Virus record (IMG/VR): IMGVR_UViG_3300031218_000007
Length of the DNA stretch: 33,703 bases
Reading direction: 5' to 3' (one strand)
Origin: a virus
The position numbers and the translations under genes were made by a program. Below the pieces are notes generated by a model. It saw only the letters and a program-made list of their open reading frames with translations. It did no database searches and was not told the origin of the DNA. Each line of letters opens with the position of its first letter. Positions within the stretch are counted from its first letter, which is position 1. Of the stretch, positions 169 through 26,782 are shown piece by piece.

Positions 169-188
169 TGTATTCATAATCTGGATAC
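169..188 (-). promoter_or_regulatory. GTATCCA-N9-TACA motif (minus-strand copy)
   Basis: Minus strand reads GTATCCAgattatgaaTACA, 70 nt upstream of the leftward ATG at 99. Confidence 0.5.
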
Positions 189-237
189 ACACAGTGACAG
201 ATGCAAAGACGGTTTCGTAGTCGTTTTCGTGTGTTAA

Positions 238-274
238 GCGTCCCTGCCGTTTATTCGGTGGGGGCGCTTTTTTT
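238..274 (+). terminator. Rho-independent terminator-like hairpin
   Basis: GCGTCCC (238-244) pairs with GGGGCGC (261-267) with one G.U pair, followed by a run of 7 T. Confidence 0.5.
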
Positions 275-285
275 CGTATAGGGTA

Positions 286-314
286 TTGACACGCGGGCAG
301 ATTGCTGCATTTGT
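286..314 (+). promoter_or_regulatory. Candidate promoter of a short terminated unit
   Basis: TTGACA (286-291), then 17-18 nt to ATTTGT/TTTGTA. About 100 nt downstream lies the strong terminator at 380-419. Confidence 0.35.
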
Positions 315-379
315 AGGCGTATCGAAAAGATTCGAAGCTTTGCAGGCACGAACAGTTTTCCCGTCCTAGTGACAATTTT

Positions 380-419
380 AGAACCTCGGTTTTCGCCTGC
401 AAAGCGCCGAGGTTCTTTT
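380..419 (+). terminator. Rho-independent terminator
   Basis: Perfect 10-bp stem AGAACCTCGG / CCGAGGTTCT with a 17-nt loop, followed by TTTT. Confidence 0.7.
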
Positions 420-578
420 GGTCTCAGTCAATAGGAGCAAGCGATGAGATCCATTAGCCCGAGTCCTACGGTGCAGTCGTCAACTCATAACTGGGGACTG
501 CTTAATACGGATTCGATGACCGCTTCAGGAATGTCATCGCGTGCACTACCCTGCTATCATGCCTACTCATCGGGAACT

Positions 579-622
579 GAGGCCAGCATCGGGGGTAGAG
601 CGAAAAGCTTGGCCTCTTTTTT
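579..622 (+). terminator. Rho-independent terminator
   Basis: GAGGCCA (579-585) pairs with TGGCCTC (610-616), followed by TTTTTT. Confidence 0.55.
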
Positions 623-763: not shown

Positions 764-779
764 CTACCACGAAACGACC

Positions 780-1154: not shown

Positions 1155-1170
1155 AATATGCACACAGCTA

Positions 1171-1186
1171 TTGACAGACCTGCACA
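1171..1186 (+). promoter_or_regulatory. TTGACA..CCTGCACA promoter motif
   Basis: TTGACAgaCCTGCACA with CAAGAT 18 nt after the -35 element. Lies upstream of the methyltransferase ATG at 1218. Confidence 0.55.
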
Positions 1187-1217
1187 GATCCGCTCAAGAT
1201 GCGGGAACGAAACCACT

Positions 1218-1856
1218 ATGAAAACCGACCTCCTAGACATCCGCCACGCCGACTGCATGGATCTCATGCGCGAATATCCTGATGGGCACTTCTCACTTGC
1301 CATCGTAGATCCGCCGTACGGGATAAACGTGGCTGAAATGAACATGGGGGTTGGAAAAGGTAAGCGATGCGCTAAGATCGAAAACAGGAAATGGAAAATC
1401 AAGAAATGGGATAGTGATGCACCAAACGATGATTACTTTGAAGAGTTATTTCGAGTATCTAAAAATCAAGTTATATGGGGAGGTAATTATTTCAATCTGC
1501 CTATTTCCCAATATTTTGCTATATGGGATAAGGGCGAAGGTATGCGAGGGCGTAGTTTTGCAGAATGCGAGATGGCATGGGTTAGCAACGGAGGGACAAG
1601 AATTTTCAAAATGTCTCCAGTTGATCGTGAACGAATCCACCCCACGCAAAAGCCCGTCGCGCTCTACGACTGGATTCTCCGCAACTACGCCAAGCCCGGC
1701 GACACGATCCTCGACACGCACATGGGCAGCGGCAGCATTGCGATCGCCTGCCACTACGCAGGGCACCACCTGACGGCTTGCGAGCTGGACGCCGACTACT
1801 ACGCCGCAGGCTGTGAGCGGGTGATGCGCGAGACGCAGCAGACCACGCTGTTTTGA
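1218..1856 (+). CDS. DNA methyltransferase, beta-class N6-adenine/N4-cytosine type
   Basis: Motif IV (AIVDPPYG) precedes HPTQKP and motif I (DTHMGSGS). That DPPY-before-FxGxG order defines the beta class of N4/N6 MTases. Confidence 0.85.
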   Translation: MKTDLLDIRHADCMDLMREYPDGHFSLAIVDPPYGINVAEMNMGVGKGKRCAKIENRKWKIKKWDSDAPNDDYFEELFRVSKNQVIWGGNYFNLPISQYFAIWDKGEGMRGRSFAECEMAWVSNGGTRIFKMSPVDRERIHPTQKPVALYDWILRNYAKPGDTILDTHMGSGSIAIACHYAGHHLTACELDADYYAAGCERVMRETQQTTLF

Positions 1857-1875
1857 CAGCAGCCGCACACAGCCA

Positions 1876-4657: not shown

Positions 4658-4677
4658 GTATCCAATACTCAACTACA
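4658..4677 (+). promoter_or_regulatory. GTATCCA-N9-TACA motif
   Basis: GTATCCAatactcaacTACA, ending 9 nt before the ATG at 4686. Confidence 0.55.
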
Positions 4678-4855: not shown

Positions 4856-4880
4856 CACACACACACACACACACACACAC
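4856..4880 (+). repeat. (CA)12 dinucleotide microsatellite
   Basis: Uninterrupted CACACA... run of 25 nt, ending 9 nt before the ATG at 4890. Confidence 0.95.
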
Positions 4881-4889
4881 GAAAACGAA

Positions 4890-5225
4890 ATGAAAATAAA
4901 AGAGCACATAAAGGAAATCATCAACCTCATCGCCAGTTCAATTATTGACGGAGATTACGAAGTTGTCCAGTTTACAGATCACTCAATAAAAATTGAAATT
5001 GACGAATCGAAATTTGAAATATGGACAGCTAACGGTGCTGAATACTTAGATTTTTGGGAATCTAAGGGTATGTTTGGCGAGGCGTTTGGCGACGAGTCAA
5101 CGCGCAAGAAAATATGGGATTCGCTCGAATCTCACATACAGCTGCACCGCGCAACGACACTAAAGGACGAAAAGCTGGCAACTATTGCGAAGCTGCAAGC
5201 TGAACTCTCCGACCTCACCACATAA
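4890..5225 (+). CDS. Hypothetical protein (AT-rich gene)
   Basis: 111-aa ORF immediately after the (CA)12 tract. Confidence 0.55.
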   Translation: MKIKEHIKEIINLIASSIIDGDYEVVQFTDHSIKIEIDESKFEIWTANGAEYLDFWESKGMFGEAFGDESTRKKIWDSLESHIQLHRATTLKDEKLATIAKLQAELSDLTT

Positions 5226-5233: not shown

Positions 5234-6115
5234 ATGAAAAAACCACACGAAATCACGATCCCCGAAATCGACGAAAGCGCACCGCTCGCCCTATTTAATG
5301 GCGACCGGCTGAAACTGGAGATCGATAAGATGGAGCTAGAAATTAACTCCCTTGTCCTCGATCCAACCAACCCCGCAGAGCACAAACACTATGGCAGCAT
5401 CAGTCTAAAGATCGGCAAGTTCTTCGCTGCCATTGACCGAGCTGGAAAGTCGCTAGTCGATCCGCTCAAACAGGAAGCTAAAAAGGTTGACGCTCAGCGC
5501 AGCATTGCAAAGAGCCGAGGCGCAGAGCTCAAGGCTGACTTCCTGTTCCCGCGGACGCAATACGACGCCGAAGTCGCAGCACACGCCAAAGCGATCACGG
5601 ACGCGCTGGAGCTGATGCAGAACGGGCACCACCGCGTCGGAGAGTTTCGGACTACAACGCTTGCCGAGTGGGACGCGCATCTCGCAGCGATCAACGCCGT
5701 CGAGCTGTCGGAGTCGTTCTTTGGCGATCGCCTAGCCGACGCTCGTGAGCTGCAAGGCACGGCCATCGAAATGAACACGGCACGCCGCGCTAAGTTTATC
5801 GAAGATCAAGCCGCACTGGAGGCCGGACGCGCCGCCCTCAAGGTGCAGCAGGACGCCGAGGCAGCAAAGCGCCATGCTGAGCGCGTAGCGGCGCAGGAAA
5901 AGGCTAAGGGTGATGCCTCGCCCGCAAGGCCGCAAGAGGCAGCGAATCCTTTGTCACTGAGAGAGTGGGAATCAAGTATGGAATTACTCGTAAAAAATGC
6001 AAAGAATAATATTTACGGGCATCTTGTAGCTTACGGAATGCCCAAAGAAAGCGCAATTAAGTTCATCGACGCGATCGCCGATGGACTTACTGAGCACCTG
6101 AAAATCGTAGCTTAA
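5234..6115 (+). CDS. Hypothetical coiled-coil protein
   Basis: 293-aa ORF with an Ala/Glu/Lys-rich central helical region. Sits next to the recombination genes. Confidence 0.6.
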   Translation: MKKPHEITIPEIDESAPLALFNGDRLKLEIDKMELEINSLVLDPTNPAEHKHYGSISLKIGKFFAAIDRAGKSLVDPLKQEAKKVDAQRSIAKSRGAELKADFLFPRTQYDAEVAAHAKAITDALELMQNGHHRVGEFRTTTLAEWDAHLAAINAVELSESFFGDRLADARELQGTAIEMNTARRAKFIEDQAALEAGRAALKVQQDAEAAKRHAERVAAQEKAKGDASPARPQEAANPLSLREWESSMELLVKNAKNNIYGHLVAYGMPKESAIKFIDAIADGLTEHLKIVA

Positions 6116-6165: not shown

Positions 6166-6185
6166 GTATCCACAATCCCACTACA
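6166..6185 (+). promoter_or_regulatory. GTATCCA-N9-TACA motif
   Basis: GTATCCAcaatcccacTACA, ending 2 nt before the ATG at 6187. Confidence 0.55.
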
Positions 6186-6772: not shown

Positions 6773-7567
6773 ATGACTACGATCCACGAAGAATCCCGCG
6801 AAGTATGCAAACGACTTGCTCGGAGGTATAATGCCAGTAAAGACGAACTCGATAAACTGGCATACAATACACTGATTAAGGCGATAAAGCTAATACCAGA
6901 GCGCAAAGCTGGCGGCCTACACCCGTTTCACAGCACTCTAATCAAGGGGCTCACCCCGAATTTTGACCCAAATGTCAAACGACCTGAGAGCGAGACGAAG
7001 GCTTGGAAAAAGATCGAGTCACACGTTACTGCAACGGGCGCGGAAACCGTGCGCATGTTTATGCGGCTCCCGAAGCCGAAAGCGAAAGCAAACGGCGACT
7101 CATACGATGACCATCTGAGCAAGCGCCCTAAGTCTGCACAGCGGCTAATCAACGTCTACGCGGACATCCTAGCAACCGCAGACGACTATTTCAGATTGCA
7201 CCCGTCCAAAGGGCGGGGCCGCAACTCCACAGCGTCGAACACGCCATCCGCACCAGCCGACTGGGTTGACCGCGTGCCGGGCGGCTGGAAGCAATTCGCA
7301 TGGGTGGATTTTTGTCGCAAATACCCGACCGAATCAGCGCAGGTATTGCGCGGCGAGGATTTGACTGTCGGATTTGAGGAATGCACGCCTGCCGATTTAG
7401 ACGCGGCCTTACGCGGCGAGGGCATTGAGTTTAAGCCGCTGACGAAATGGCAGAAGACTGAGCAAATCGCCAGCCGGCTACGCAAGAACCAAGATGACGA
7501 GGCGATGCAGTATGGCCGCGCTGAGCTAGAGCGGCGTGATGGGGGCGCTGTGACGAGCGGAATTTAA
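6773..7567 (+). CDS. Hypothetical protein whose N-terminus weakly resembles sigma-factor region 2
   Basis: ATG at 6773 follows a CA-rich tract. LARRYNASKDELDKLAYNTLIKAIKLIPERKAGGLHPF resembles the ECF sigma region 2 pattern (weak, by eye). Confidence 0.55.
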   Translation: MTTIHEESREVCKRLARRYNASKDELDKLAYNTLIKAIKLIPERKAGGLHPFHSTLIKGLTPNFDPNVKRPESETKAWKKIESHVTATGAETVRMFMRLPKPKAKANGDSYDDHLSKRPKSAQRLINVYADILATADDYFRLHPSKGRGRNSTASNTPSAPADWVDRVPGGWKQFAWVDFCRKYPTESAQVLRGEDLTVGFEECTPADLDAALRGEGIEFKPLTKWQKTEQIASRLRKNQDDEAMQYGRAELERRDGGAVTSGI

Positions 7568-7894: not shown

Positions 7895-8362
7895 ATGACA
7901 CCAACCAAACAGACCTACCGCGTAATCCTACGCACGCCCCAAGACGTAGCCCGCACGCACGCGATCATTGACAACGCGCAGGTGAGCACCGACACACCTT
8001 ACGAGGTCACGATCAAACCGTATGAGCTGACGCGCTCGCAGGCTCAGAACCGGCTCTACCGCAAATGGCTGGCGATCATCTGCGAAGAGACAGGGCAGGA
8101 CACCGACAGCCTACACTTGCTCTTCAAGGAGCGCTTCTTAGTGCCGCTACTATGCGCCGCAGACGATACGTTTGCTGACCGCGTGCAGGCGGTCAAACAG
8201 CTACGGCGGGACGGGGCGCACGAGATGGCGGACTTCGCCAAGGGCATCATACTGGACTACGCCAGCACCACGTCCCTGAAAGTGCGCGGAATGACAACAT
8301 ACCTTGACAATGTTTCGGTATTTGCGGCTGAATTGGGCATCACACTTTCGCAACCAGAATAA
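7895..8362 (+). CDS. NinB/Orf-like recombination mediator (candidate)
   Basis: VTIKPYELTRSQAQNRLYRKWLAIICEETG parallels lambda NinB VTIQERNRSLDQNRKLWACLGDVS. The size is similar. Confidence 0.5.
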   Translation: MTPTKQTYRVILRTPQDVARTHAIIDNAQVSTDTPYEVTIKPYELTRSQAQNRLYRKWLAIICEETGQDTDSLHLLFKERFLVPLLCAADDTFADRVQAVKQLRRDGAHEMADFAKGIILDYASTTSLKVRGMTTYLDNVSVFAAELGITLSQPE

Positions 8363-8986: not shown

Positions 8987-9246
8987 GCAAACTAAAATAC
9001 ACAGCCTGTCAGCGCGTGAGATTCACGGCGTGCGAGACACTACGCGAGGGCGTGATCGACTTCGCCGTAAGCTACGGCACCGCAGACAACCTCTACGACA
9101 TACAGGACAATCACGGACGCATGTATCACGAGGTGCCAGAGGTGCAGGTGCATGGGCTGGCCGTGGTAAGGGAGCCCGACGATCTCGAAAAGGCAGTGCT
9201 CGACTTCGAGGGGCTCATTGACCAGCTGAGAGGGGGGCAACTATGA
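8983..9246 (+). CDS. Hypothetical protein
   Basis: ATGA overlap with the upstream gene. 87 aa. Confidence 0.5.
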   Translation: MSKLKYTACQRVRFTACETLREGVIDFAVSYGTADNLYDIQDNHGRMYHEVPEVQVHGLAVVREPDDLEKAVLDFEGLIDQLRGGQL

Positions 9247-9368
9247 GCACGCCATCGTTCGCGGTCAGTGCCGCGCCTCCGGTGGTGACGCGGCAGGAGA
9301 CCACTCAATCCGCCACACAGTCAACGCGTTACGCCGCCTCGCCCCATTATGAGCTTGACGGATTCTGA
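9243..9368 (+). CDS. Possible small ORF (41 aa)
   Basis: ATGA overlap with the upstream gene is the only support. Confidence 0.25.
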   Translation: MSTPSFAVSAAPPVVTRQETTQSATQSTRYAASPHYELDGF

Positions 9369-9533: not shown

Positions 9534-9639
9534 TTACAAGGAATCTTTTACGTTGCAACGCGTCCAAAGTGAGTGTCCCAGACCCACCTCCTTTCTCGCA
9601 AACTTTCAAATTACTAAATCTAATCCCCAAACAACCAAC

Positions 9640-10287
9640 ATGAGCAAAACTAATACAGCCGCAACCAACGAGACCTACACCACGCAGGGCGCCGTCGCGA
9701 AGTCGCTCGGCGTCACCGGCCGCATGATCCGAAAATGGCGCGAAGACCATCACGACGCCCCCGCCAAAGTAGACAAACAGGAGCCGCTGCACGCATGGCA
9801 AGCGTTCGTCGAGCGCAAGGGTCTGAGCGGATTACAGGACGAAGCGAACGCATCGCTGGAGGCCATGAAGATCGAAGAGCAACGGCTACGGAATCTATTC
9901 CGCCAAAGCCAGATCGACCTGAACACGGAGAAGCTGTTGATAATGACCGGCGCTTACATTCCGCGTGCCGAGATTGAAGCGCAGCTCGCGCCGCTGATCG
10001 CAGAGTTCCAGATGCTGGTGACCGAGCGCGATATTGAAATGTCCAACTGGTCACCCGGCCACACGACCGGAGAGATCCGCGTCCGTCAGCGGACTACCCT
10101 CGACGCCGTGTTCGACGCGATTCGCTCTGGAGCTGCCGACCTGATGGCGACCGCGCAGAGCAACACGAAGAAGATGCTCGCCAACGAAGCCACGCCAATT
10201 AACGCTCCCGGGCAAGGCCGTCCCAAATCCGCAACCCGCAAGCCAGCGAAGAAAGCGGCGAAGCGGAAAACCAAACGCACCAAATGA
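9640..10287 (+). CDS. terS: Terminase small subunit (candidate)
   Basis: ATG at 9640 inside track ORF 9349-10287. N-terminal HTH-like segment (QGAVAKSLGVTGRMIRKWRE), basic C-tail, and ATGA-coupled to terL. Confidence 0.6.
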   Translation: MSKTNTAATNETYTTQGAVAKSLGVTGRMIRKWREDHHDAPAKVDKQEPLHAWQAFVERKGLSGLQDEANASLEAMKIEEQRLRNLFRQSQIDLNTEKLLIMTGAYIPRAEIEAQLAPLIAEFQMLVTERDIEMSNWSPGHTTGEIRVRQRTTLDAVFDAIRSGAADLMATAQSNTKKMLANEATPINAPGQGRPKSATRKPAKKAAKRKTKRTK

Positions 10288-12164
10288 CCAGCCTCGAAAC
10301 TATCTGGCGCGCCGCCTTCACGACCCGTGACAACCGCAGCATTACGGACTGGGCACATGAGCACATCAAGTTCGGCTCAGATTCGCCGTTTCCTGGCCTA
10401 TTCGACGCGGACAACGTGCCGTGGACACGCCGCATCTACGAGGCATGGCAAGACCCGAGCGTCAGGCAGATCATCATCTCGGGATGCCCGCAGCTATCGG
10501 GCAAGACCATCGCGGCGCAAGTCTGCATGGCTCACACGCAGGTCAACGACCCAAGTCCGATGGGATTCTACGCCGACACAAACGGCAAGGCTGAGCGGTT
10601 TGAGGCTACACGCTGGCGGCCAATGCTGGACAAATGCCCTGCGCTGGCTGACCGCGTGCGCACGGCCACGAAAGGGCGCACGATCTTCAAAGACGGCTCG
10701 TTCCTGATCATCCTCGGAGCCGAGGCAGAGGCGAATCGCCAGTCGGACACATTGCGTCACATCGTCAAGGACGAGGCATGGCGCTATGGTGCAGGATGGG
10801 GCAAGCAGATCGACAACCGCAAGGAGGCGTTTGACCGCACTGGCGACTGGAAAACGATGGCACTCGGCACCGGCGGCACTAAAGGCACGGAATTTTCAAA
10901 CGATCACGCGTCTGGCACCTGCGAAGAATGGCACGTGCCTTGCCCGCACTGCGGAGGGATGCACGACTACAAGTGGGATCACAGCGACGGCGGCGTCTTC
11001 GAGAAAGAGGATGTGATGAAGGCGGACGGCTCGCTTGACTTCCGCGCCACAGGGCAGACCACCCACATCAAATGCCCGCACTGCAAACAGCGCATTGAAT
11101 ACGACCGCGAGGAACGCGCACGCGCCAACCTGAGCGGCGAATGGATCGCGACGAACGAGGACGCTGACCCGAGCATTGTGTCGATTACGATTTCCGCTTT
11201 CGTTGTCGGCAAGGATTGGCGCGATATCATGGAGCGTTGGATTCGCATAGGCAAAGGACATAACGTCGGTCAAAAGCAGGCACTCAAAGATTTCATTCGG
11301 TTTGTTCTTGCTCAGTTCTGGGAAGACCGCCCCATAGTAGTCAAGCAGGAGATGGTAACAGGCGACTACACACGCGCGGACATGCTCGACGGCAGGATGG
11401 ATGGGGAGTTTACGCGCCTCGCTGCAATCGACTACCAGCACGGATTACGGGGCGACCGCGAGCACTTCTGGTTCGTCGTTCGCGCCTATCGTGCAGACGG
11501 CTCTTCGCGCCTCGTAGACTGCGGGCGGGTTGACGAGGTGGCTGACCTCGACGATCGGTTAATCGCGGCAAAAGTCGAACGCGTCAGTAATGCAGATCAC
11601 AAGTCTAGCCGCGTGACGATTGACTGCGCGTTTAAACCCGATGTGATTTATGAGTTTTGCTTGCGATTTAATTGGGTGGGCGTGCGCGGGGAAGACCGAG
11701 ACATGCGGCAAAATGGGGGGCAGTATCTTCACAAAATACCAGTTAAAAAGGGAGTAGAGTTTCGGGTGTATAAGAATTTCAGCGATCTAAAGAGTGGGCA
11801 AATCGGCGTTGGTCGAACGTCGAAATACAACGGGCTATATGCGCCGTGGCGGGCGATCAATAACCAAGCAATCGAAGACCAGCTCTACGAGCTGCGCTCT
11901 GGTAAGGCTATGGCGTGGGAGGTGCCGAGCGACATAATGGACTTTTGCCCCGAGTATGGGCAGCACATCAACACGCACGCAAAGCTCAATGTGAGCAAGG
12001 ATGAGTCACATGAGAACTACCGCTGGACGCTGGTCGGAAGCCAAGAGCAGAACCCCGACCACCTCTACGCCTGCGAAAAATACCTGGTGGGCAAGGCCAT
12101 CGAGGCCGATCTAGTCACGGACATCAGCGAAAAGCAGGAGAGCGAACAGCAAGATAGCGAATAA
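10284..12164 (+). CDS. terL: Terminase large subunit, GpA (lambda) type
   Basis: Walker A (GCPQLSGKT), Walker B-like (HIVKDEAW), and a CPHCG...CPHCK zinc ribbon typical of GpA-family terminases. 626 aa. Confidence 0.88.
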   Translation: MTSLETIWRAAFTTRDNRSITDWAHEHIKFGSDSPFPGLFDADNVPWTRRIYEAWQDPSVRQIIISGCPQLSGKTIAAQVCMAHTQVNDPSPMGFYADTNGKAERFEATRWRPMLDKCPALADRVRTATKGRTIFKDGSFLIILGAEAEANRQSDTLRHIVKDEAWRYGAGWGKQIDNRKEAFDRTGDWKTMALGTGGTKGTEFSNDHASGTCEEWHVPCPHCGGMHDYKWDHSDGGVFEKEDVMKADGSLDFRATGQTTHIKCPHCKQRIEYDREERARANLSGEWIATNEDADPSIVSITISAFVVGKDWRDIMERWIRIGKGHNVGQKQALKDFIRFVLAQFWEDRPIVVKQEMVTGDYTRADMLDGRMDGEFTRLAAIDYQHGLRGDREHFWFVVRAYRADGSSRLVDCGRVDEVADLDDRLIAAKVERVSNADHKSSRVTIDCAFKPDVIYEFCLRFNWVGVRGEDRDMRQNGGQYLHKIPVKKGVEFRVYKNFSDLKSGQIGVGRTSKYNGLYAPWRAINNQAIEDQLYELRSGKAMAWEVPSDIMDFCPEYGQHINTHAKLNVSKDESHENYRWTLVGSQEQNPDHLYACEKYLVGKAIEADLVTDISEKQESEQQDSE

Positions 12165-12321: not shown

Positions 12322-12379
12322 CAGTGCAACAAGCGGGAACGTCGCGAAGCCAAAACCGCGTAACACACACACACCCGAA

Positions 12380-12406
12380 GCCCGCCCTAACACGGCGGGC
12401 TTTTTT
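12380..12406 (+). terminator. Rho-independent terminator
   Basis: GCCCGCC / GGCGGGC stem with a 7-nt loop, then TTTTTT. Confidence 0.75.
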
Positions 12407-12437
12407 GCGTCCGCACCGAAGCATTGACAAGCCGCGC

Positions 12438-12457
12438 GTATCCAGATACTGAATACA
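12438..12457 (+). promoter_or_regulatory. GTATCCA-N9-TACA motif (preceded by TTGACA at 12424)
   Basis: GTATCCAgatactgaaTACA, ending 4 nt before the ATG at 12461. Confidence 0.55.
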
Positions 12458-14498: not shown

Positions 14499-14533
14499 CG
14501 TCAATCAAAACGATGTTGACCTTTTCAGTTTGT

Positions 14534-14553
14534 GTATCCATAAACTGAATACA
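14534..14553 (+). promoter_or_regulatory. GTATCCA-N9-TACA motif
   Basis: GTATCCAtaaactgaaTACA. The final A is the A of the ATG at 14553. Confidence 0.55.
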
Positions 14554-15590
14554 TGGCAGAATCTTTTCAGTCGCAAGTAGTAGCATTTGACCAGTCACTC
14601 GGACTGGCACTGCTTGACAACGCCATCGACCTTACAGCCGGAACCATCAAAGGCGTAAGCCTTGCGACCGCAGGCGTTGAGGCCATCGGCCACGGCGAGT
14701 ATGACGAGACCACGCAAGAGCTGATACGCGAGTTCTGGACAGACGCTACCACGCTTGAGACGATGCTTGTTGCCTGCCTTGCAATCGGACAGCCGCTCAA
14801 AGCCAAGCTTGAACACGGCACCGGACTCTCCGAAGTCGTTGGCACGTTCGACAATTTCCGTATCGATGGCGATCACCTCCGCGCAGACTTTACAGCGATT
14901 CCAACCTCAGCGGGCGTAGCGCATTTGTTTTCGCTAGCCGACCGCATCTCTAGGCAGTTCGGCGTATCCGTCACAGCACTACTGCAAAAAGTAAAACAGG
15001 GCGGGGTCGATCTAATGCGCTGCATGAAGATAGAGTCGGCGGACTTTGTGGACGCGCCCGCAATCAACGCGGGCTTATTTTCCGCTAAAACTAAATTTAG
15101 CAAACTCACCAAAAACCAAACACAGATTATGACAGAAGAAGAAATCAACGCACTGATTGCCGAGGCATTAAAGCCCATGCAAGAGCAACTTACTACACTC
15201 GTGGAGGGTATGCCCGAAGAGCTATCAGCCGACGAACTCGAAGCTGAAGCGACCGCCGCTGCTGCACTTGAAGCTGAGGGTGAAGCAAGCAAAGCTGAAA
15301 TGTCTGCGCTTAAAGCCAGCATGACAGCACTGGAGACTAAAAACTCCACGCTCGAAGCTAACCTTGCTACGGCAACCGCCGAATCGAAAAAGCTCGGCAT
15401 CTCGTTCGGCGCATCCTTGCAAGTGCAGGAAGCACAGACCAAACAGACCGACTCGTTCTCCGCCGAAATGTCCAAAAAGACCGGCGAGGGCAAAGCTTAC
15501 CACGTCGCGCTTATGGAGCTTACACGTGAAAATCCAAAACTCGTAAATGCAGAGGCCGCTCAGCGCGGAGTCTACGTTTCTCAACTCTAA
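14553..15590 (+). CDS. Prohead protease / scaffold fusion (candidate)
   Basis: The N-terminal half carries HK97-type protease-like segments (LEHGTGLSEVVG, FGVSVTAL, ESADFVDAPAINA). The C-terminal half is an Ala/Glu-rich coiled coil. Sits between portal and capsid. Confidence 0.5.
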   Translation: MAESFQSQVVAFDQSLGLALLDNAIDLTAGTIKGVSLATAGVEAIGHGEYDETTQELIREFWTDATTLETMLVACLAIGQPLKAKLEHGTGLSEVVGTFDNFRIDGDHLRADFTAIPTSAGVAHLFSLADRISRQFGVSVTALLQKVKQGGVDLMRCMKIESADFVDAPAINAGLFSAKTKFSKLTKNQTQIMTEEEINALIAEALKPMQEQLTTLVEGMPEELSADELEAEATAAAALEAEGEASKAEMSALKASMTALETKNSTLEANLATATAESKKLGISFGASLQVQEAQTKQTDSFSAEMSKKTGEGKAYHVALMELTRENPKLVNAEAAQRGVYVSQL

Positions 15591-16004: not shown

Positions 16005-16024
16005 GTATCCAATAACCAACTACA
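16005..16024 (+). promoter_or_regulatory. GTATCCA-N9-TACA motif
   Basis: GTATCCAataaccaacTACA, ending 10 nt before the ATG at 16034. Confidence 0.55.
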
Positions 16025-17617: not shown

Positions 17618-17632
17618 TTGACAACCTGCACA
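17618..17632 (+). promoter_or_regulatory. TTGACA..CCTGCACA promoter motif (predicts a leaderless transcript)
   Basis: TTGACAaCCTGCACA, CACTAT 16 nt downstream, then 7 nt to the ATG at 17653. Confidence 0.55.
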
Positions 17633-17652
17633 CACAACGCACTATCTACCCC

Positions 17653-18366
17653 ATGACACACGCCCCCCAACTCGCTACAGACTACTACGGCCAACCGATC
17701 AAAGGCTGGCTGCTTTCCGAAAAGCTGGACGGCATCTACGCAGATTGGACAGGATCAGAGCTTCGCACGAAGACAGGCAAGCTCATCCTATGCCCTACGA
17801 GCATCACAGACAGCCTTCCAGCGTTTCCCTTAGCGGGCGAGCTATGGGCGGGGCGCGGAGGGTTTCAGCGCGTTCTATCCGCCCTCAAATCTGGCATCTC
17901 TGGCGACTGGGCAAGTATTGAGTTTGTGGCATTTGACGCGCCCGGCTCACTTGCCCGCGCATCAACTCGGATGGAGATAACACAAAGCATCCCTAGCGTT
18001 AAAGCGGTATCCCAAACCGTAATTACCGACAAGCGCCACATGAAGCGCCTAGTCAAAGAGATACTAGCCACCGGCGGAGAGGGCGCAATCCTGCGCAATC
18101 CAGCATCACTATACACCGCTGGCAGGTCTGACGACTACGCCAAGGTCAAGCCCGTGCTATGCGACGAGGCGACCTATACGGGCAAGACAGTGACCACAGC
18201 GACGGGAAAAACTTCATTAATCTGCGAGTATCAAGGTGAGACCTTTAAACTCCACACCAACACGCCAGCAACTAAAGGCCAGCTAGTCACGTTTGAATAT
18301 TACGGACTGACAGACAGTGGCAAACCTCGGCACGCTCAGTTTATTGCAATCAGAGACTACGAGTAA
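17653..18366 (+). CDS. lig: ATP-dependent DNA ligase (minimal, ~237 aa)
   Basis: Motif I SEKLDG (KxDG), GELW, FVAFD, EGAILRNP and YAKVKP: the nucleotidyltransferase motifs I, III, IIIa, IV and V in order. Confidence 0.85.
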   Translation: MTHAPQLATDYYGQPIKGWLLSEKLDGIYADWTGSELRTKTGKLILCPTSITDSLPAFPLAGELWAGRGGFQRVLSALKSGISGDWASIEFVAFDAPGSLARASTRMEITQSIPSVKAVSQTVITDKRHMKRLVKEILATGGEGAILRNPASLYTAGRSDDYAKVKPVLCDEATYTGKTVTTATGKTSLICEYQGETFKLHTNTPATKGQLVTFEYYGLTDSGKPRHAQFIAIRDYE

Positions 18367-18374
18367 AATCTAGC

Positions 18375-18409
18375 GCCTCACAGCCCCGAGTAAACTGCGA
18401 GGCTTTTTT
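18375..18409 (+). terminator. Rho-independent terminator
   Basis: GCCTCACAG / CTGCGAGGC stem (one mismatch) followed by TTTTTT. Confidence 0.65.
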
Positions 18410-18429
18410 GCGCCTTGCCATTTACATCT

Positions 18430-18449
18430 GTATCCATTAACTGAATACA
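18430..18449 (+). promoter_or_regulatory. GTATCCA-N9-TACA motif
   Basis: GTATCCAttaactgaaTACA, ending 2 nt before the ATG at 18451. Confidence 0.55.
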
Positions 18450-19977: not shown

Positions 19978-21063
19978 ATGAGCAACAACAACCTAGAAAA
20001 CGGCAACAGCAACGAAATCGACGCAACGCGCCGCGCAAGCATCCGCGCCACGATGGAAGTTTACAGCCAAGACGAAACGGACGCTCGGCCTACGCTTATC
20101 GGCAACACGATATTCGTCGCCAAGACTGGCACCGACACCCGCACCGGACTCGACGACCACGACATCCGTAAGCCGTTTCTGACAGTCAACGCAGCGCAGG
20201 CAGTGGCGGTGAGCGGCGACACGATCATGGTCTTTGCTGGCGACTACAGCGCAGAGACCGCGCTCGGCGGCGTGGATGGCGTAGCTTACGTCGGGCAGCT
20301 CGGCGCGACGTTGCCAGCGTTTAACGTGACTACGGGTATTACCATTTACGGCAGCGGATTGGCGCAGTCGCTCACTTGCAATCATGCCAGCGCGGTCATG
20401 AATTTTGCGCGGATGGATACTGTAACATTTATTTTTTGCATCCTCGGTATTCAAACCGCAGGGAACGCAGGCACTATCATTGCGAGCGAGGGCGGTATTC
20501 AAACCGCAGGAAACGCAGGCACTGCCATTGGGTGTGATGGCGGTATTCAAACCGTAGGGAACGCAGGCACTTACATCGCGTGCGGAGACGGTATTCAAAC
20601 CGCAGGGAACGCAGGCACTTACATTGAGTGCGAGAGCGGCGTGCAGACCGTCACTCACGCAAACTTCACCTCAACAGACCGCCCCGTAAGATTGTCAGGA
20701 TCAGGCAGCCTCACCATCACAGGCCGCGTCGAGTCCACCGAGTCAAACGGCGTGATCGTGGACATCTCAAACAACTGGAGCGGCACACTCAACGCCGTTG
20801 ACCTCGACCTCACAGCGACAACCGTCGCCACCAACGGCGCAACCAAGGGCATCAACTACGGCACCGGCGTCACGGGCAATGTGCAGCTCAAGAACTGCAC
20901 TATCATCACGGCCAAGAACGGCACAGGCACCGCCAAGAGCATCGACGCGCCCGCCGCGCAAGCCGTCTACGTTCAGGGCTCGCTCAACCAAACACACGCG
21001 GTTGATTCCGACATCACGCTGGCGGGCGGCGCTGCTATCACCAACACGTCATTCACCGTGTAA
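19978..21063 (+). CDS. Pectin-lyase-fold (right-handed beta-helix) protein: fibre, spike or depolymerase candidate
   Basis: IFVAKTGTDTRTG..RKPFLTVNAAQAVAVSGDTIMVFAGDY is the typical beta-helix N-cap signature. Internal 16-aa coils read GIQTAGNAGTxIxxxx. Confidence 0.65.
   Translation: MSNNNLENGNSNEIDATRRASIRATMEVYSQDETDARPTLIGNTIFVAKTGTDTRTGLDDHDIRKPFLTVNAAQAVAVSGDTIMVFAGDYSAETALGGVDGVAYVGQLGATLPAFNVTTGITIYGSGLAQSLTCNHASAVMNFARMDTVTFIFCILGIQTAGNAGTIIASEGGIQTAGNAGTAIGCDGGIQTVGNAGTYIACGDGIQTAGNAGTYIECESGVQTVTHANFTSTDRPVRLSGSGSLTITGRVESTESNGVIVDISNNWSGTLNAVDLDLTATTVATNGATKGINYGTGVTGNVQLKNCTIITAKNGTGTAKSIDAPAAQAVYVQGSLNQTHAVDSDITLAGGAAITNTSFTV
20446..20637 (+). repeat. Four tandem 48-bp (16-codon) repeats plus a degenerate fifth
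   Basis: GGTATTCAAACCGCAGGGAACGCAGGCACT recurs at 20446, 20494, 20542 and 20590. The last ~18 bp of each unit differ. Confidence 0.9.
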
Positions 21064-21101: not shown

Positions 21102-21121
21102 GTATCCAGAATCCAACTACA
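21102..21121 (+). promoter_or_regulatory. GTATCCA-N9-TACA motif
   Basis: GTATCCAgaatccaacTACA, ending 25 nt before the ATG at 21146. Confidence 0.55.
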
Positions 21122-22152: not shown

Positions 22153-23951
22153 TGGCATTTTCACTTAAGGCAATTTTAGGGCTGGAAACTTCGCAGTTTG
22201 AGCGTGGCGTCGGCAGGGCTAAAGCAGGGATTAAAAAGCTCGGAGCCAGCGCGGGCGCACTTGCGAAAAAGTTCAGTAAGATAGGATTTACCGCAGTCGT
22301 CGCTGGGTTTGCATTGCTGACGAAAAACGCCATCGCGTTGGGTTCTGAGCTTTCTGACATTGCAATCTCTACGGGGTTTGCGACTGAAAAGTTTCAGGTA
22401 TTTCGGGGAGCTTTACTTGATGCGGGTGGAGAGGCTAAGAGCATGGAGAAGGCCATTCTAATTATGCAGAAGGCCGTAGTCCAAGGCTCCGAGGGGTTGA
22501 CTACATACATTCGCGCTTTTGAGCGGCTCGGACTCAACGTAGAAAACCTCAGAGCGATGAAGCCCGAGGAACAGTTTGAGACTATCGGCAAGGCTATTGC
22601 GGGCGCAGAGGATCAGCAAGGCGCCCTCACGGCAGCTATTGAAATCTTCGGCCAACGTAGCGCACCGCGACTAATCGAGGTATTTAAGCGATTGGATCAA
22701 GATGGCTACGGCAAAATGGCCAAAGATATTGAAGAGGCTTATGGCGTGATGGATGCGCAAACTCAGAAGGCCCTGGACAAAGCTTCTGACACGATTGAAC
22801 GGTTTAAGAATAAGTCTACGATCTACGTAGCTGACCTGATTAACGGTATTGGGCTAGAGGCAAAACTAAAGAAAATCGCACTTCAGTTGTCTCAATTCGT
22901 GGGCAACCTTACGGTTGAGCTTCTTACCATTGGGCCGAGTCTCATTCCGGATTCATGGTTTGACAAATGGAAAGATGGCATCAATGACGGTCACGCTACA
23001 TTGATAAAAGAGCAGGATGCCTTAATATCAAAAGCAAAACGACTAGCAGAAGAGAAGGAAAAAGCAGCAAAAGCCGCTGCGGATGCACAAAAGCCAGTCA
23101 TTGAAGCAATTGTTGAAACGACAGAATCAACCGAGGATCAAGAAAAAGCATTAAAAAAGTTAAATAAAGAACAGGAAGAGCAATATATAACTGAAAAAAA
23201 GTTAGAGGCCCTTCGTCTCCGTGCTGCCGGAGACAATAGTGCAGCCGACGCTTTAGATTTACACATACAAAACATTAAGGAATCAATCCGGATATCAGAA
23301 AAGTACAATATCACCATCGAAGAAGCTATAAGCTTGGTCAACGCCCTTAATAAAGCTTCAGAAAAAAAACCAGAAGACGATGGAGGCGAATTAGAACGGC
23401 AAAAAAAGATAACGGAAATGAAGCTTGCCGCACTCAAAGCGGAGACGCGAGGGGAAGACGCATTGGCCGAGGCACTGAGAAACCGCATAAAACTAGCCGA
23501 GCGAATCCTCGAAATCATGCAAGAAACTGGCGCGACCCAGCGCGAGGCTACCATCATAGCTAACAAACAGGTCAAGGCTGAGTTGGCGGGGGATAGCGGA
23601 TCAACAGGCGGCGGCGATGGTGGCGGATCAACAGGCGGATCAACTGGCGGCACCAACACGGGCAAGCCATCCATCGGCAAAGACCGCGTTGGCGGCGTGC
23701 AGGGCAACTTCGGCGGCTATGGCTCCCGCTTTGGGCCTAAGCAGACAATGGACGAGCGCGAACGTGCAGCCGGTCTCAACCTCGCCGGCAACGACACTTT
23801 AAGCGGGCGCAGAGGCCCCGAAAGCCTCGGAACGGCTGGATCAAAGGCTAAGAGCGAGTTTGGGGAAGCATTGACTCCGACGAATAAGGAGCTGAGTGAA
23901 ATGAATCGCTCGCTGAAAACAATCGAAACCGAACTGACCAATGGCAACTGA
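22152..23951 (+). CDS. Tail tape measure protein
   Basis: 599 aa. The N-terminal region (GSELSDIAISTGFATEKF..AILIMQKAVVQGSEG..AIEIFGQRSAPRL) fits the tape-measure core. It also has a long coiled coil and a Gly-rich C-terminal part. Confidence 0.8.
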   Translation: MAFSLKAILGLETSQFERGVGRAKAGIKKLGASAGALAKKFSKIGFTAVVAGFALLTKNAIALGSELSDIAISTGFATEKFQVFRGALLDAGGEAKSMEKAILIMQKAVVQGSEGLTTYIRAFERLGLNVENLRAMKPEEQFETIGKAIAGAEDQQGALTAAIEIFGQRSAPRLIEVFKRLDQDGYGKMAKDIEEAYGVMDAQTQKALDKASDTIERFKNKSTIYVADLINGIGLEAKLKKIALQLSQFVGNLTVELLTIGPSLIPDSWFDKWKDGINDGHATLIKEQDALISKAKRLAEEKEKAAKAAADAQKPVIEAIVETTESTEDQEKALKKLNKEQEEQYITEKKLEALRLRAAGDNSAADALDLHIQNIKESIRISEKYNITIEEAISLVNALNKASEKKPEDDGGELERQKKITEMKLAALKAETRGEDALAEALRNRIKLAERILEIMQETGATQREATIIANKQVKAELAGDSGSTGGGDGGGSTGGSTGGTNTGKPSIGKDRVGGVQGNFGGYGSRFGPKQTMDERERAAGLNLAGNDTLSGRRGPESLGTAGSKAKSEFGEALTPTNKELSEMNRSLKTIETELTNGN

Positions 23952-24663
23952 ATATTTAGACGGCACCGCCTTCACTACTGCCCGCCAACACGGCGACTTA
24001 ATCCTCGATCGCCCATTGACTGACGTGGGCGACGCGACAGCTCTGGTTATCTACCGCACGATGCGGATTCTAAGCGCCGACTACGCTCCCGTTAGCAGGG
24101 GCACAGCGTTAGCGGGATTTACTGGATCTCGACTCATTCGCGAAACGCAACCCGAAGAAATCAGCACGGGAGTGTGGGAATTTAAGCAAATCTATGCAAC
24201 AAAGCCAGCGAACCGATCAGACGTGTTTTCAGGCTCGATCAGCTTTCCATTTCCATCAACTCAAGGCGTATATTACACGCCTCCTGCGACTGCTGAGTCT
24301 GCTGATGAAAGTGATGATAACCTGTGGGAATATCGCGAAGAAAAAACGGCTGTCACGAATCCCGGCGTTTTGTATATTGATTACGTTTACTTCCTCGAAG
24401 CTTCACCTCCGACAATAGCCACAGTGTTTAAGTCATCAGAGCCCGGATTCGTTTCTAATGGCGGTTCTGGCTCGGTAAATAATGCGAAAGCGTTAAACGG
24501 AGATGTATTTACTGGAACATATTCAGTCAGTGCCACCACGCCATCCGCTACAGCTTACGCAACATCAATAACGGATGGCGATCTGTTAAATGTTGACGTG
24601 CGGATTAGCAGATACATGGGCGACATTTTCGTCATGGAAACCCACAAGACAGCCGCAAAATGA
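23941..24663 (+). CDS. Distal tail protein candidate
   Basis: 240 aa, overlapping the TMP stop by 11 nt. Call is by position only. Confidence 0.45.
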   Translation: MATEYLDGTAFTTARQHGDLILDRPLTDVGDATALVIYRTMRILSADYAPVSRGTALAGFTGSRLIRETQPEEISTGVWEFKQIYATKPANRSDVFSGSISFPFPSTQGVYYTPPATAESADESDDNLWEYREEKTAVTNPGVLYIDYVYFLEASPPTIATVFKSSEPGFVSNGGSGSVNNAKALNGDVFTGTYSVSATTPSATAYATSITDGDLLNVDVRISRYMGDIFVMETHKTAAK

Positions 24664-25235
24664 AAATAAAACCCGAAGAAGTTAAAGGCTGGGGCACCTT
24701 TCGGCGTGTATTGAAAAAGCTGATACACTCCGCCAACCGCACCGAAAACATTTCGATTAGCCGAAATAGTTTCACCGACGGCGTGACCTATTCAGGCGAT
24801 TCGATCATACTTAATATTTCAAAATCGAAACCAAGTCTCGGCGGCGTCAGCTCTGGAAATTTAGGCATTCACGCCTTTCAGTTAGTTGAAGAGGATATTA
24901 CTACGCTTTGCGTTCGACAAGGAACCGTTGGCACTATCATTCCGACTATTACAGGAGGCAGCGAACTTGAACCCGATTACACCGAAAACGTGTTATCACT
25001 ACCGGGCACAGGAACCCGAGAATACTGGCTCAAGATTACAATAGACTCAAGTGGCTATATTACAGCCGTCACCATCGAGGATGGTGAGCCAGGTAACGTC
25101 AGCGCAACTCAAGCTGAAATCCTACTTGGAAGCGTTGAGACCGATAGTGGCGATATAGTCGTGTTTAACTCAAACCTTAGCGGCTCACAGGCACTAGCCT
25201 CTTGTGGCGCAAATCACTTTTTTGGATTCGTCTAA
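24660..25235 (+). CDS. Tail/baseplate protein, function unknown
   Basis: ATGA-coupled, 191 aa. Confidence 0.45.
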   Translation: MKIKPEEVKGWGTFRRVLKKLIHSANRTENISISRNSFTDGVTYSGDSIILNISKSKPSLGGVSSGNLGIHAFQLVEEDITTLCVRQGTVGTIIPTITGGSELEPDYTENVLSLPGTGTREYWLKITIDSSGYITAVTIEDGEPGNVSATQAEILLGSVETDSGDIVVFNSNLSGSQALASCGANHFFGFV

Positions 25236-26488
25236 TGGGAAACCCGTTCAACATAGGGCCGTTTAATTGTTGCTCCTGTCCTGAGCCTCCAGACTTCGAT
25301 GCCGAGGTGGACGATCCGATGGCTAAGTATATCAATATGTGCGGTTGCCCGACTGTCGCGATATTCTGCGTGAGCGAGGAAAAGATCGCTACGCTCTGCG
25401 GCAAAATGGAATTTCAAGACCTCACCGCCGATCCCCCCGTATTGCGGTCTTCACCGCCCGCAGTGTATAAGTCAAAGGAAGTTGAGACTGTCACCGTCAC
25501 ACCCTCTGTCACCACAAGTTTCCCGCAGCGCTGCTGGCAAACAGGGATCACTGGTGACTCAGATGTTACTACAATAGATTATACGGCCACGGCAGTTACG
25601 ACAAGCCGGCACTTTACTGAAAAGACAGTAACAAGTCTATCCACCGAAGTGTGGGATACGGAAACATGCTCAAGCTCTACCTCAAACGATCCTGTTTCCA
25701 TTGTAGGAGGTGTAGGCAGCACGTCTGGCGAGCTTGATTGCTCTAGCTATAATGGCAACAACCCCCCCGGTTGCGGCCCAATAGATCCACCCCTCACAAC
25801 ACGGGGTGCTGTAATACCCGCTGTTGTGCCAGATGATCCGTCCGACTTGGTTGGAAACGCATTAAAAATAAACGTATCTCATACATTTGTTAATAGTGGT
25901 AGAGCCGCAGGCACCTATGAATACACATCATCTCGGCAGGACACAGAAACTTTCGATGGGCTTGAGTTAGTGGATTCGGATTGCGGAATTGATTCTAGAT
26001 CAACTTTAGATATACCTGGGTATGCTGCTAGATACTCCACTACCACAACAACAACTACATTATCGTTGCCAGACTCCGAGGAAGAAGCATTAGCCCGCGC
26101 TACGGCCAAAGCAGGTTCAGATTGTTCCTCTATCGACGAGCTCCGCACCGACTCCTACGACATAACCCAGCGCACCGCCACTTACACGGCTACAGCTAGC
26201 AACCTCGTGATCGGCGTGCCCTACAAGGGCTGCGTGCGCCTTCGTCGCCGCAAAGCCTACAGCGGCACCACCCCCCTCGACCCCGAGACGGAAGTCACCG
26301 AAGTTATCGCATGGGAAGATGTTGAGCCCGACACCATTGCACCTTTTACGCCAACAGAAACAAGCGAGGAAGTCGCGACCGATGAAGCCCTGCCCACCGC
26401 CAAGGGCTATGAATACCAAGCAGTCAGCGCCCACGTCTGGCCAGTCTCCGCAGGTTGCGATTGCCCTACATCTTACGTAACCCCATGA
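25235..26488 (+). CDS. Tail tip/baseplate protein with a Cys-rich N-terminus
   Basis: ATG at 25235 (TAATG overlap). The N-terminus reads NCCSCPEPP...MCGCPTVAIFC...LCG, and the central part is Thr/Ser-rich. Confidence 0.5.
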   Translation: MGNPFNIGPFNCCSCPEPPDFDAEVDDPMAKYINMCGCPTVAIFCVSEEKIATLCGKMEFQDLTADPPVLRSSPPAVYKSKEVETVTVTPSVTTSFPQRCWQTGITGDSDVTTIDYTATAVTTSRHFTEKTVTSLSTEVWDTETCSSSTSNDPVSIVGGVGSTSGELDCSSYNGNNPPGCGPIDPPLTTRGAVIPAVVPDDPSDLVGNALKINVSHTFVNSGRAAGTYEYTSSRQDTETFDGLELVDSDCGIDSRSTLDIPGYAARYSTTTTTTTLSLPDSEEEALARATAKAGSDCSSIDELRTDSYDITQRTATYTATASNLVIGVPYKGCVRLRRRKAYSGTTPLDPETEVTEVIAWEDVEPDTIAPFTPTETSEEVATDEALPTAKGYEYQAVSAHVWPVSAGCDCPTSYVTP

Positions 26489-26712
26489 TTACTCGAAACC
26501 ATAAACCGACACCGCTCGTGCTGACCGAGGCACAGAAGGCCAGCTTGCAAAAGCCACAGTCGCGACCCAAGCACCACGGCTTAGGCGACCTCGTTGAAAA
26601 GCTCGCGAAGCCCATCGCCAAGGTGATCGACCGCGTGGCAGGCACAAACATTCAAGGATGTGGCGGGTGTCAGAAGCGCAAGGAATGGCTAAATGATAAT
26701 TTCCCGAAGTAA
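26485..26712 (+). CDS. Small protein with a CGGC motif
   Basis: ATGA-coupled, 75 aa, ending ..GTNIQGCGGCQKRKEWLNDNFPK. Confidence 0.45.
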   Translation: MITRNHKPTPLVLTEAQKASLQKPQSRPKHHGLGDLVEKLAKPIAKVIDRVAGTNIQGCGGCQKRKEWLNDNFPK

Positions 26713-26762
26713 CCGCAAAATTGACCCATCCCAGCCCGCTTCCAGTCGGCACTTGCCAAAAC

Positions 26763-26782
26763 GTATCCAATAACCTAATACA
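26763..26782 (+). promoter_or_regulatory. GTATCCA-N9-TACA motif
   Basis: GTATCCAataacctaaTACA, ending 6 nt before the ATG at 26788. Confidence 0.55.

Follow-up and report, generated by a model that had tools for sequence, protein, structure and literature searches.

A dispersed GTATCCA motif as a putative operator over predicted leaderless promoters in a phage of probable verrucomicrobial host

The window considered here, by which is meant the whole 33,703-nt stretch of viral DNA recorded as IMGVR_UViG_3300031218_000007, contains ten copies of a 20-nt motif, GTATCCA-N9-TACA, nine of which stand immediately ahead of start codons. Comparison with related contigs (designated by L-numbers, L140 being the Verrucomicrobia phage P8625, NC_029047.1, and W the window itself) led to a reading, held with evenly balanced confidence, in which the motif is the operator of a regulator, is laid over leaderless promoters of the sigma-70 type, is bound by a helix-turn-helix (HTH) protein, and serves repression. 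Almost nothing is known of gene regulation in Verrucomicrobia phages, and the result is a first cis-regulatory map for them: a near-complete account of a 33.6-kb phage with some ten units each bearing a conserved site, several having in addition a terminator or a consensus -35, and with starts that would be leaderless or preceded by A/C-rich sequence devoid of Shine-Dalgarno (SD) elements.

According to this reading, the site would overlie the -10 and start region of ordinary sigma-70-type promoters, and its full form, a 19-bp inverted repeat, would be the target either of a dimer or of a protein with two HTH units in tandem. Copies in the window would then be weakened versions of that repeat, four with the right half TGAATAC and six with (A/C)TACA only. 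Host RNA polymerase would read a TTGACA-like -35 together with a weak A/T-rich -10 inside the site, and transcription would start at the ATG or 1–3 nt before it, from which it would follow that the motif always ends beside a start codon and that SD sequences are absent. The candidate binder, nominated on the basis of co-occurrence, is the HTH protein encoded at 31102-31359, a homologue of P8625 gp40. Binding would be expected to block open-complex formation, repression being suggested because the site is centred on about -11, and sites overlapping -10 to +1 are nearly always repressive in bacteria. One protein could in this way hold nearly all of the phage transcription units off, with relief provided either by titration on replicated genomes or by inactivation of the regulator.

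Occurrence of the motif in the window

An exact search returned ten matches, bearing out the initial annotation, which had reported nine copies on the plus strand and one on the minus strand; shuffled sequences gave an expectation of 0.01, and none of 100 shuffles reached ten. All ten lie within the approximately 10% of positions that are non-coding, a placement with a random probability of about 1e-10, the coding fraction of the genome being 88% by the gene calls of the Joint Genome Institute (JGI) for this contig, Ga0307973_1000215. The first 127 nt of the window (1-127) are identical to the last 127 nt (33577-33703), so that the genome is a complete circle of 33,576 bp and no copy of the motif has been counted twice; in the relatives L022 and L109, the gene order carries on over the circular junction.

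Each of the nine plus-strand copies precedes a plus-strand gene, orientation following transcription throughout, and the downstream start codon is ATG in every case. The distances previously given from the final A of the motif to the A of the ATG, namely 17, 9, 2, 4, 0, 10, 2, 25 and 6 nt, proved correct. The first of these copies (744-763) has a degenerate right half (CCAACTACA), lies 17 nt from ATG 780, the first gene of the rightward early operon, and is accompanied by no good -35. Similarly degenerate right halves, with no -35 seen, characterise the copies at 4658-4677 (ATG 4686, 9 nt on), 6166-6185 (ATG 6187, 2 nt on) and 16005-16024 (capsid ATG 16034, 10 nt on); along with that at 744, these three may represent either weak promoters or roadblock sites. 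The copy at 21102-21121, also with a degenerate right half, is followed by an A/C-rich 25-nt leader and ATG 21146, and the P8625 site that matches it in position, ahead of a gene of equal length, is flipped.

Three plus-strand copies are near-palindromic. That at 12438-12457 (GTATCCA-GATAC-TGAATAC) would cover the -10 and start region of the gpW-like and portal unit (ATG 12461), that at 18430-18449 the promoter of the first tail unit (ATG 18451), while at 14534-14553 the last A of the motif doubles, as had been noticed, as the A of the ATG (14553) of the protease/scaffold gene. The copy at 26763-26782 ends in CCTAATACA, 6 nt from ATG 26788, and its right half, TAATAC, would act as the -10. The single minus-strand copy, GTATCCAGATTATGAATACA at 169-188, is again a near-palindrome, with a plus-strand reading at 170-189 containing one mismatch; it heads the leftward operon, some 69 nt before an 80-aa gene (33433-33675) across the circular junction.

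Two near-copies to which attention had also been drawn, GTATCCGTAATCCTAATACA (29082-29101, plus) and GTATCCATAATCCTGATACT (29309-29328, plus), do exist and are conserved in relatives, each sitting 33 nt inside one of two paralogous open reading frames (ORFs; 29049-29279 and 29276-29929); they fall short of the exact ten in score, however, at 20–22 bits as against 25–29.

The near-palindromic copy at 169-188 could in addition drive transcription to the right. In the adjacent plus-strand interval (189-276), a strong terminator (236-274) follows about 85 nt downstream, such that rightward firing may yield a small RNA or the product of a 26-codon ORF. The adjoining region from 280 to 740 has no called genes.

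Anatomy of the site

For base composition, 69 distinct copies were pooled, drawn both from the window and from its relatives. Variation is concentrated in an A/T-rich centre, and the outer bases never change; A or G occupies position 15 and A or C position 16, and a pyrimidine stands immediately before the motif. The initial annotation held the eighth base of the N9 always to be A, which is so in all ten window copies; this does not extend to the relatives, where it is A or G (A in 42 and G in 26 of the 69). The N9 is accordingly not random, since its middle is A/T-rich and base 8 is restricted to these two purines.

Four window copies (169, 12438, 14534 and 18430) also match on the opposite strand with at most two mismatches, and are near-palindromes of the form GTATCCA-N5-TGAATAC. 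The remaining six end in CCAACTACA, CAACTACA, CCCACTACA or CCTAATACA; such degenerate copies keep just the outer (A/C)TACA of the right half, which in reverse reads TGTA(T/G), a weakened half-site. Many relatives carry a perfect 19-bp palindrome, GTATCCA-N5-TGGATAC (such as GTATCCAGAAACTGGATACA and GTATCCATAAAACGGATACA), a form that points to a DNA-binding protein acting as a dimer. In P8625, the halves are flipped at three promoters with the strong half, GTATCCA, downstream, and the orientation rule of the window is therefore not universal, as a symmetric site would allow. Conserved half-sites thus flank a variable spacer, the arrangement of a dyad operator. The stem sequence shows no covariation, and about half of the copies, including six in the window, are unable to pair. 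Judged by these features of sequence, the site has the anatomy of a target for a dimeric DNA-binding protein, and not that of an RNA structure or of a polymerase-specific promoter.

Tandem arrays with a 21-bp period were found in L093 (seven copies, 910-1069), L042 (four copies, 9077-9222) and L113 (four copies, 9203-9328), phages that look unrelated, in each case within an extended stretch of non-coding DNA ahead of the small and large terminase genes; they too fit a site bound by protein. Beyond the copies come a conserved GGGGTGGGGGTG box and A/T-rich sequence, and such arrays could serve in regulation, as a titration sink, as an origin or in packaging.

Promoter geometry and transcriptional context

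The initial annotation had reasoned that a conventional -35/-10 promoter cannot sit so close to a start codon. That argument is contradicted by consensus -35 hexamers, all on the plus strand, at four of the copies: TTGACA at 12424-12429 (8 nt to the motif, 31 nt to ATG 12461), TTGACC at 14516-14521 (12 nt to the motif, 31 nt to ATG 14553), TTGCCA at 18415-18420 (9 nt to the motif, 30 nt to ATG 18451), and TTGCCA at 26753-26758 (4 nt to the motif, 29 nt to ATG 26788). A survey across the family covered 39 unique sites with an ORF-opening ATG no more than 9 nt downstream, and sought hexamers with at least a 5/6 match to TTGACA located 15–54 nt upstream of the ATG. Of the 27 such hexamers recorded, 19 lie exactly 29–31 nt from the ATG, and these are 4, 7, 8, 9 or 12 nt from the motif. 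The -35 and the +1 of a canonical sigma-70 promoter are 29 nt apart, and the family-wide spacing is thus the sigma-70 geometry with the ATG as +1: a -35 at 29–31 nt places the ATG at +1 to +3 and predicts mRNAs that are leaderless or nearly so.

The corresponding -10 falls inside the motif, in the A/T-rich centre when the main register applies and at TAATAC in the CCTAATACA type, and the hexamers available there are weak (TATTGG, TATCTG, TAACTG) even beside a consensus -35. An SD-like core precedes 7 of the 55 genes overall and none of the nine linked to the motif, the 20 nt before start codons being 69% A+C and 14% G. The -35 geometry and the lack of SD sequences suggest that the predicted starts are leaderless, subject to the weakness of the -10 hexamers; the earlier proposal of a start at or just after TACA, with a leaderless or short-leader mRNA, gains from both observations, and transcription very probably begins where the motif ends, give or take a few bases.

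By way of contrast, the companion proposal that the motif is itself a compact promoter, for which a fixed position and orientation relative to the start would be expected, finds no support. The distance to the start codon ranges from 0 to 25 nt in the window, the register of the motif shifts by up to 8 bp with respect to both the -35 and the ATG, the full form is palindromic, and the motif is flipped at three promoters of P8625. Nor is any phage RNA polymerase encoded that might recognise such a promoter, the largest proteins being of 626, 599 and 512 aa, two of which are the terminase and portal.

Promoter and motif are, moreover, separable. TTGACA-N29-ATG at 17618-17655 (plus), which lacks the motif, is a predicted leaderless promoter of the same geometry for a 237-aa gene (17653-18366), and the site elsewhere overlaps -35/-10 elements that can thus be told apart from it, as would an operator. 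The interval 17618-18409 forms a self-contained motif-less unit in which the 237-aa gene, with weak similarity to a DNA-ligase OB domain, is followed by a strong terminator; lying between the head and tail modules, it resembles a moron or a gene expressed on its own.

Two intrinsic terminators further delimit the promoters. One, GAAGCCCGCC...GGCGGGC then TTTTTT (12377-12406, plus), follows the large terminase gene 31 nt before motif 12438; the other (18375-18409, plus) closes the 237-aa gene and ends 20 nt before motif 18430. Both are strong, and the promoters for the units at 12438 and 18430 must in consequence lie between terminator and ATG. In addition, a (CA)12.5 run at 4856-4880 directly precedes ATG 4890, with a similar feature upstream of 2510.

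Candidate binding protein

The initial annotation had put forward two proteins on which the motif might depend. One, the small HTH protein at 31102-31359 (minus; 85 aa as an ORF, 73 aa according to JGI; Pfam HTH_23, E 1e-5), is the only clear DNA-binding protein in the regulatory regions and stands as the best candidate, its family co-occurring with the motif; on these sequence-based grounds it is most likely the binder. Members of the family were found in W, L109, L022, L131, L005, L143-145 and P8625, such that every sufficiently covered motif-bearing genome encodes one. Alignment by hhalign of the window HTH profile with P8625 gp40 gave a probability of 88.7% (E 2.6e-6), and the two proteins have an N-terminal signature in common, M-[LI]-x-M-...-S-x-C-M-D-[YF]. 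The gene that follows the HTH gene is also weakly homologous between the window phage and P8625, and in several relatives a copy of the motif lies directly after the HTH gene. The leftward operon in which the window HTH gene resides encodes, in addition, peptide deformylase and a DUF4406 protein.

P8625 gp40 (L140 26427-26849, 140 aa) comprises two tandem HTH repeats, as do most of its relatives (a set that includes P0051-P0064), and this tandem arrangement would fit a target with two half-sites. The window homologue and some others (93–94 aa) have a single HTH unit. The single and duplicated forms provide a natural pair with which to ask how two half-sites are read.

Pfam matches of the family were confined to HTH_23, HTH_30, HTH_28, HTH_Tnp_ISL3 and Sigma70_r4; NCBIfam matches were all under the cut-off, and PDB profile matches were to generic HTH domains. 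An AlphaFold model of the HTH protein (pLDDT 78) likewise retrieved generic HTH folds when compared with PDB by Foldseek (best E 0.59). No match to Mor was obtained with Pfam, NCBIfam, PDB profiles or Foldseek.

The second protein, a 264-aa product (6773-7567) described as sigma-like, lost its claim to that description: it showed no similarity in Pfam, PHROG or PDB, only ten shallow homologues were found, and its AlphaFold model (pLDDT 53) was unusable.

The peptide deformylase gene (31956-32348, minus; Pfam E 5.7e-32) occurs in a phage that would rely on leaderless, fMet-dependent starts. As an auxiliary gene, peptide deformylase is best known from marine cyanophages.

Conservation in related phages and probable host

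Among relatives with the same genes, the motif is present in some and absent from others. In L121 (terminase 56% identical), it stands before the gpW-like, protease/scaffold, 126-aa, capsid, first tail and 125-aa genes; L005 (48%), where it likewise precedes the corresponding genes, has four exact copies 2–8 nt before ATGs; and L122 (53%) has a degenerate version. The motif is absent from L124 and L125 (50–52%), which use clear SD sequences (AAGGAAA, GGAGG) ahead of the same structural genes, a difference that suggests another host lineage with different translation signals. In L124, -10-like hexamers (TAGTAT, TAATAT) are nevertheless present 6–7 nt before the gpW-like and protease start codons without the motif, so that the motif would seem to be of more recent date than the leaderless starts at these positions. 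A first scan of viral contigs for the motif returned mostly single chance matches, only contigs with multiple matches being informative.

The best match to the large terminase among GenBank phages was that of P8625 (25% identity, E 6e-30), a Verrucomicrobia phage with a genome of 32,894 bp and the host Puniceicoccales sp. IMCC8625. A relative in the group formed by L069 and P8625 was binned in an 'uncultured Opitutae' metagenome-assembled genome (MAG). The phage family that shares the motif therefore probably infects Verrucomicrobia, and the window phage, which is abundant in apparent Antarctic lake metagenomes, acquires a probable host lineage in the Opitutae/Puniceicoccales. No close GenBank phage relative was recovered by megablast of 15 kb or by tblastn with the capsid protein, and no prophage relative was confirmed in a terminase-profile scan of 185,579 genomes.

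Seven sites were located in P8625, every one within the structural-gene region: 5426-5444 (before gp08), 8089-8108 (inside the Clp-protease-like gp10, its overlap with an in-frame ATG being read by eye from the sequence), 9633-9652, 10750, 11266-11285, 15573 and 17515. Five motif-bearing promoters have a TTGACA-like hexamer whose distance to the ATG is exactly 30 nt, and the same spacing recurs at a candidate motif-less promoter at 22442. The P8625 genome paper is silent on promoters and on the motif (PMC4642752). Because both the site and the candidate regulator are present in this one cultured verrucomicrobial phage, the prediction is directly testable.

The site is also of use in calling true start codons and transcription units within this phage group. 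For P8625 gp13, annotated from a TTG at 9620, the terminator, -35, site and ATG all point to 9656, and the annotated start looks wrong; gp07 may similarly start at 4672 (TTGACA-N29-ATG) rather than at the annotated 4705.

In L121, two copies lie inside the protease ORF (4974-5014), shortly ahead of an internal ATG in the same frame. Together with the internal copy in P8625, they suggest a nested scaffold gene with its own start, comparable to lambda C/Nu3. The protease/scaffold ORF of the window has an internal ATG at 15129, with no motif there.

A different arrangement was recorded in L070, where the interval 43-830 consists of three repeated units, each comprising a conserved 17-nt stretch (CACTGATGAGACCATCA), a copy of the motif and a gene start 10–20 nt on. 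This contig is of 44% GC, and its ERF-region genes are common to L042 and L005.

Points weighing against the proposed reading

Several observations count against the operator reading. Where transcription starts, which protein binds and with what sign it acts are all deduced from sequence, the sign being the weakest step: repression commands about one half of our confidence, activation about one fifth, and a host factor about one tenth. Five or six window copies have no convincing -35, and 14 of the 19 hexamers with sigma-70 spacing are at the main register, 8–9 nt from the motif, so that the evidence for sliding comes from few independent promoters. No integrase or partition gene was seen in the window. 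JGI labels two members of the HTH family 'Mor family transcriptional regulator', and in Mu both Mor and C activate transcription. The motif-bearing phages L093, L042, L113 and L070, which have ERF-region genes in common with L005, yielded no HTH homologue in the parts available, and a host factor may therefore be at work. The published description of P8625 is that of a lytic phage (PMC4642752). For a lytic phage, an activator made early and acting on late promoters would be the more usual logic, and the internal copies in L121 look more like the making of a start than the silencing of one. An activator would also be consistent with the lytic habit of P8625, with the weakness of the -10 hexamers, with the copies that lack a -35, with the L121 pair and with the arrays before late operons.

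Alternative explanations

One alternative, tentative in itself and compatible with the operator reading, concerns only the copies without a -35 (744, 4658, 6166, 16005 and 21102), which could act as roadblocks that stop read-through when the regulator is bound, in the manner of the stoperators of cluster A mycobacteriophages. Copies of this kind occupy short intergenic gaps within operons and are all co-oriented with transcription, and for repressors of the L5 type more than 20 binding sites, asymmetric and dependent on orientation, are known in promoters and short intergenic spaces (PMC9283540). This role accords less well with the copy at 744, which heads an operon after a long non-coding region, and with the P8625 counterpart of 21102, which is flipped and has a -35 and -10.

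The chief competitor as to sign is a positive element, which we consider rather unlikely. Under this alternative, a phage factor, for example an HTH protein with helices like those of sigma region 4, would recruit or remodel host RNA polymerase and fix the start, the motif being either a phage-specific promoter or the target of an activator of late genes, a reading near to the idea originally advanced. In its favour, the motif of lytic P8625 is confined to the structural region, with the gp40 HTH gene in the replication region; the -10 hexamers remain weak beside a consensus -35; several copies have no -35 at all; the two L121 protease-ORF copies lie ahead of an in-frame internal ATG; the arrays of L093 and L042 are upstream of the terminase operon; and two members of the HTH family bear the Mor label. 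Against it, the site is centred on about -11, as opposed to about -42 for Mu Mor/C or other class II activators, and promoters that depend on an activator do not typically have a consensus -35. The motif keeps neither a constant distance from the -35 and ATG nor a constant orientation, and no specific family, whether Mor, sigma or other, was matched at curated threshold. Furthermore, the window operon that contains the HTH gene has the site itself, such that nothing free of the motif would be truly early. A more explicit version, which we regard as doubtful, is that one or two sigma-region-4-like HTH units sit over the -10 and, with host sigma at the -35, take over -10 recognition or opening. 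If true, it would amount to a new form of late-gene activation from position -11, with leaderless starts defined for every late unit; activation by binding at this site, in place of repression, would in any event be an unusual mechanism.

It is less probable again that the palindrome is the site of a verrucomicrobial transcription factor, adopted by several unrelated phages and coupling them to host physiology. Consistent with a host factor, the motif is common to phages that differ in terminase and early modules and whose GC contents span 44–55%, in the groups represented by the window's family, by P8625 and L069, by L093, L042 and L113, and by L070; the last two of these groups yielded no HTH homologue in the parts available, and the use of SD sequences by the motif-less L124 and L125 may point to a different host. 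Set against this, each motif-bearing genome with enough coverage encodes the HTH family, and ERF-region genes shared in mosaic fashion link the phage groups. A scan of 185,579 genomes for a -35 together with the palindrome gave seven matches, the three examined being a phage contig in an Opitutae MAG and two matches in other verrucomicrobial MAGs (L134, L137) that lie inside ORFs and were treated as chance, and the other four comprising a single site each; similarly, no long host contig with several sites emerged from the metagenome scan.

An RNA-level signal, whether a hairpin, a processing site or a translation element, is most improbable: palindromic copies could fold in read-through transcripts into a 7-bp stem with a 5-nt loop beside the AUG, and the motif-linked genes have no SD, yet the stem sequence is constant without covariation, six window copies are unable to form it, arrays occur in non-coding DNA far from any start codon, no Rfam family was matched, and the mRNA of the unit itself would carry little or none of the motif because the predicted start lies at or downstream of its 3' end.

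Comparison with known systems

The closest known kind of system is the dispersed set of phage operators, as exemplified by the L5 type, by P1 C1 and by the lambda type. In the cluster A mycobacteriophages (L5 gp71, TipsytheTRex), many sites for one phage regulator, more than 20 in that case, are distributed genome-wide, as here, and are located in promoters and in short intergenic gaps by gene starts (PMC9283540). Their orientation tracks transcription (PMC9283540), a property shown likewise by the nine plus-strand copies of the window. Lytic derivatives such as D29 retain the sites. These stoperators are, however, 13-bp asymmetric sequences bound by a monomer with an HTH and a 'stoperator' domain, whereas the full site described here, an inverted repeat of 19 bp, has its centre at the -10 of promoters already furnished with a -35, and its orientation, given the three flips in P8625, is not universal. 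The candidate binder is, moreover, an HTH protein of 73–140 aa unrelated to L5 gp71, and neither an integrase nor an immunity cassette was seen.

Phage P1 offers a second parallel, in which a single repressor, C1, serves many operators scattered over a non-integrating genome. The C1 operators comprise single asymmetric and paired imperfect-palindrome forms, resembling the degenerate-half and near-palindromic copies of the window, but sequence, protein family and host all differ. The late promoters of P1 are activated by Lpa and are not known to carry C1 operators. Lambda, for its part, supplies precedents both for a dyad operator over the -10 region of a sigma-70 promoter and for an mRNA that begins with AUG (cI from PRM), the two features proposed here. 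The operators of lambda are confined to the immunity region, and its late genes are under antitermination; by contrast, each late unit here would have its own terminator, promoter and operator, and leaderless starts would be the rule.

Two further systems were considered. The Mor and C proteins of Mu are, like the candidate here, small phage HTH proteins, with a dyad site at each middle or late promoter. Mor and C sites are centred on about -43 and overlap a poor -35; the present site, centred on about -11, ends 0–7 nt from the ATG and lies downstream of a consensus -35, and its candidate binder has no family match to Mor. The promoters of T7, T3 and SP6 are conserved sequences of about 20 bp that end at the transcription start and are repeated before many units, as is the motif, yet they differ in that the window has no RNA polymerase gene and a motif that is palindromic, sliding and flippable. 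What sets the present system apart from all of these is the sequence of the site, the candidate protein, the host phylum, and the provision of a terminator, a predicted leaderless promoter and a site for each late unit.

Other readings and minor observations

The first six bases of the motif, GTATCC, are the BciVI recognition sequence. A reading as a restriction or methylation target was set aside; GTATCC is not avoided in the window (25 occurrences as against 15.6 expected, about 13 of them outside the motif copies). A DnaA box (TTATCCACA), LexA, NtcA, the TACA boxes of CopY/BlaI and sigma-54 failed to fit in spacing or in sequence. Replication iterons or a packaging site cannot explain ten copies linked to gene starts, and are possible for the arrays of L093 and L042. 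Rfam and tRNA scans of the window found nothing, and a literature search for 'GTATCCA' retrieved primer sequences only.

An N6/N4 DNA methyltransferase was found in each well-covered motif-bearing genome that was checked, namely the window (1158-1856), L005 (624-1265), L109 and P8625 (L140 604-1893). Finally, the 361-aa gene at 19978-21063 contains a 48-nt tandem repeat (20445-20639; 4.1 copies, 83% matches), which yields a 16-residue repeat in the protein.

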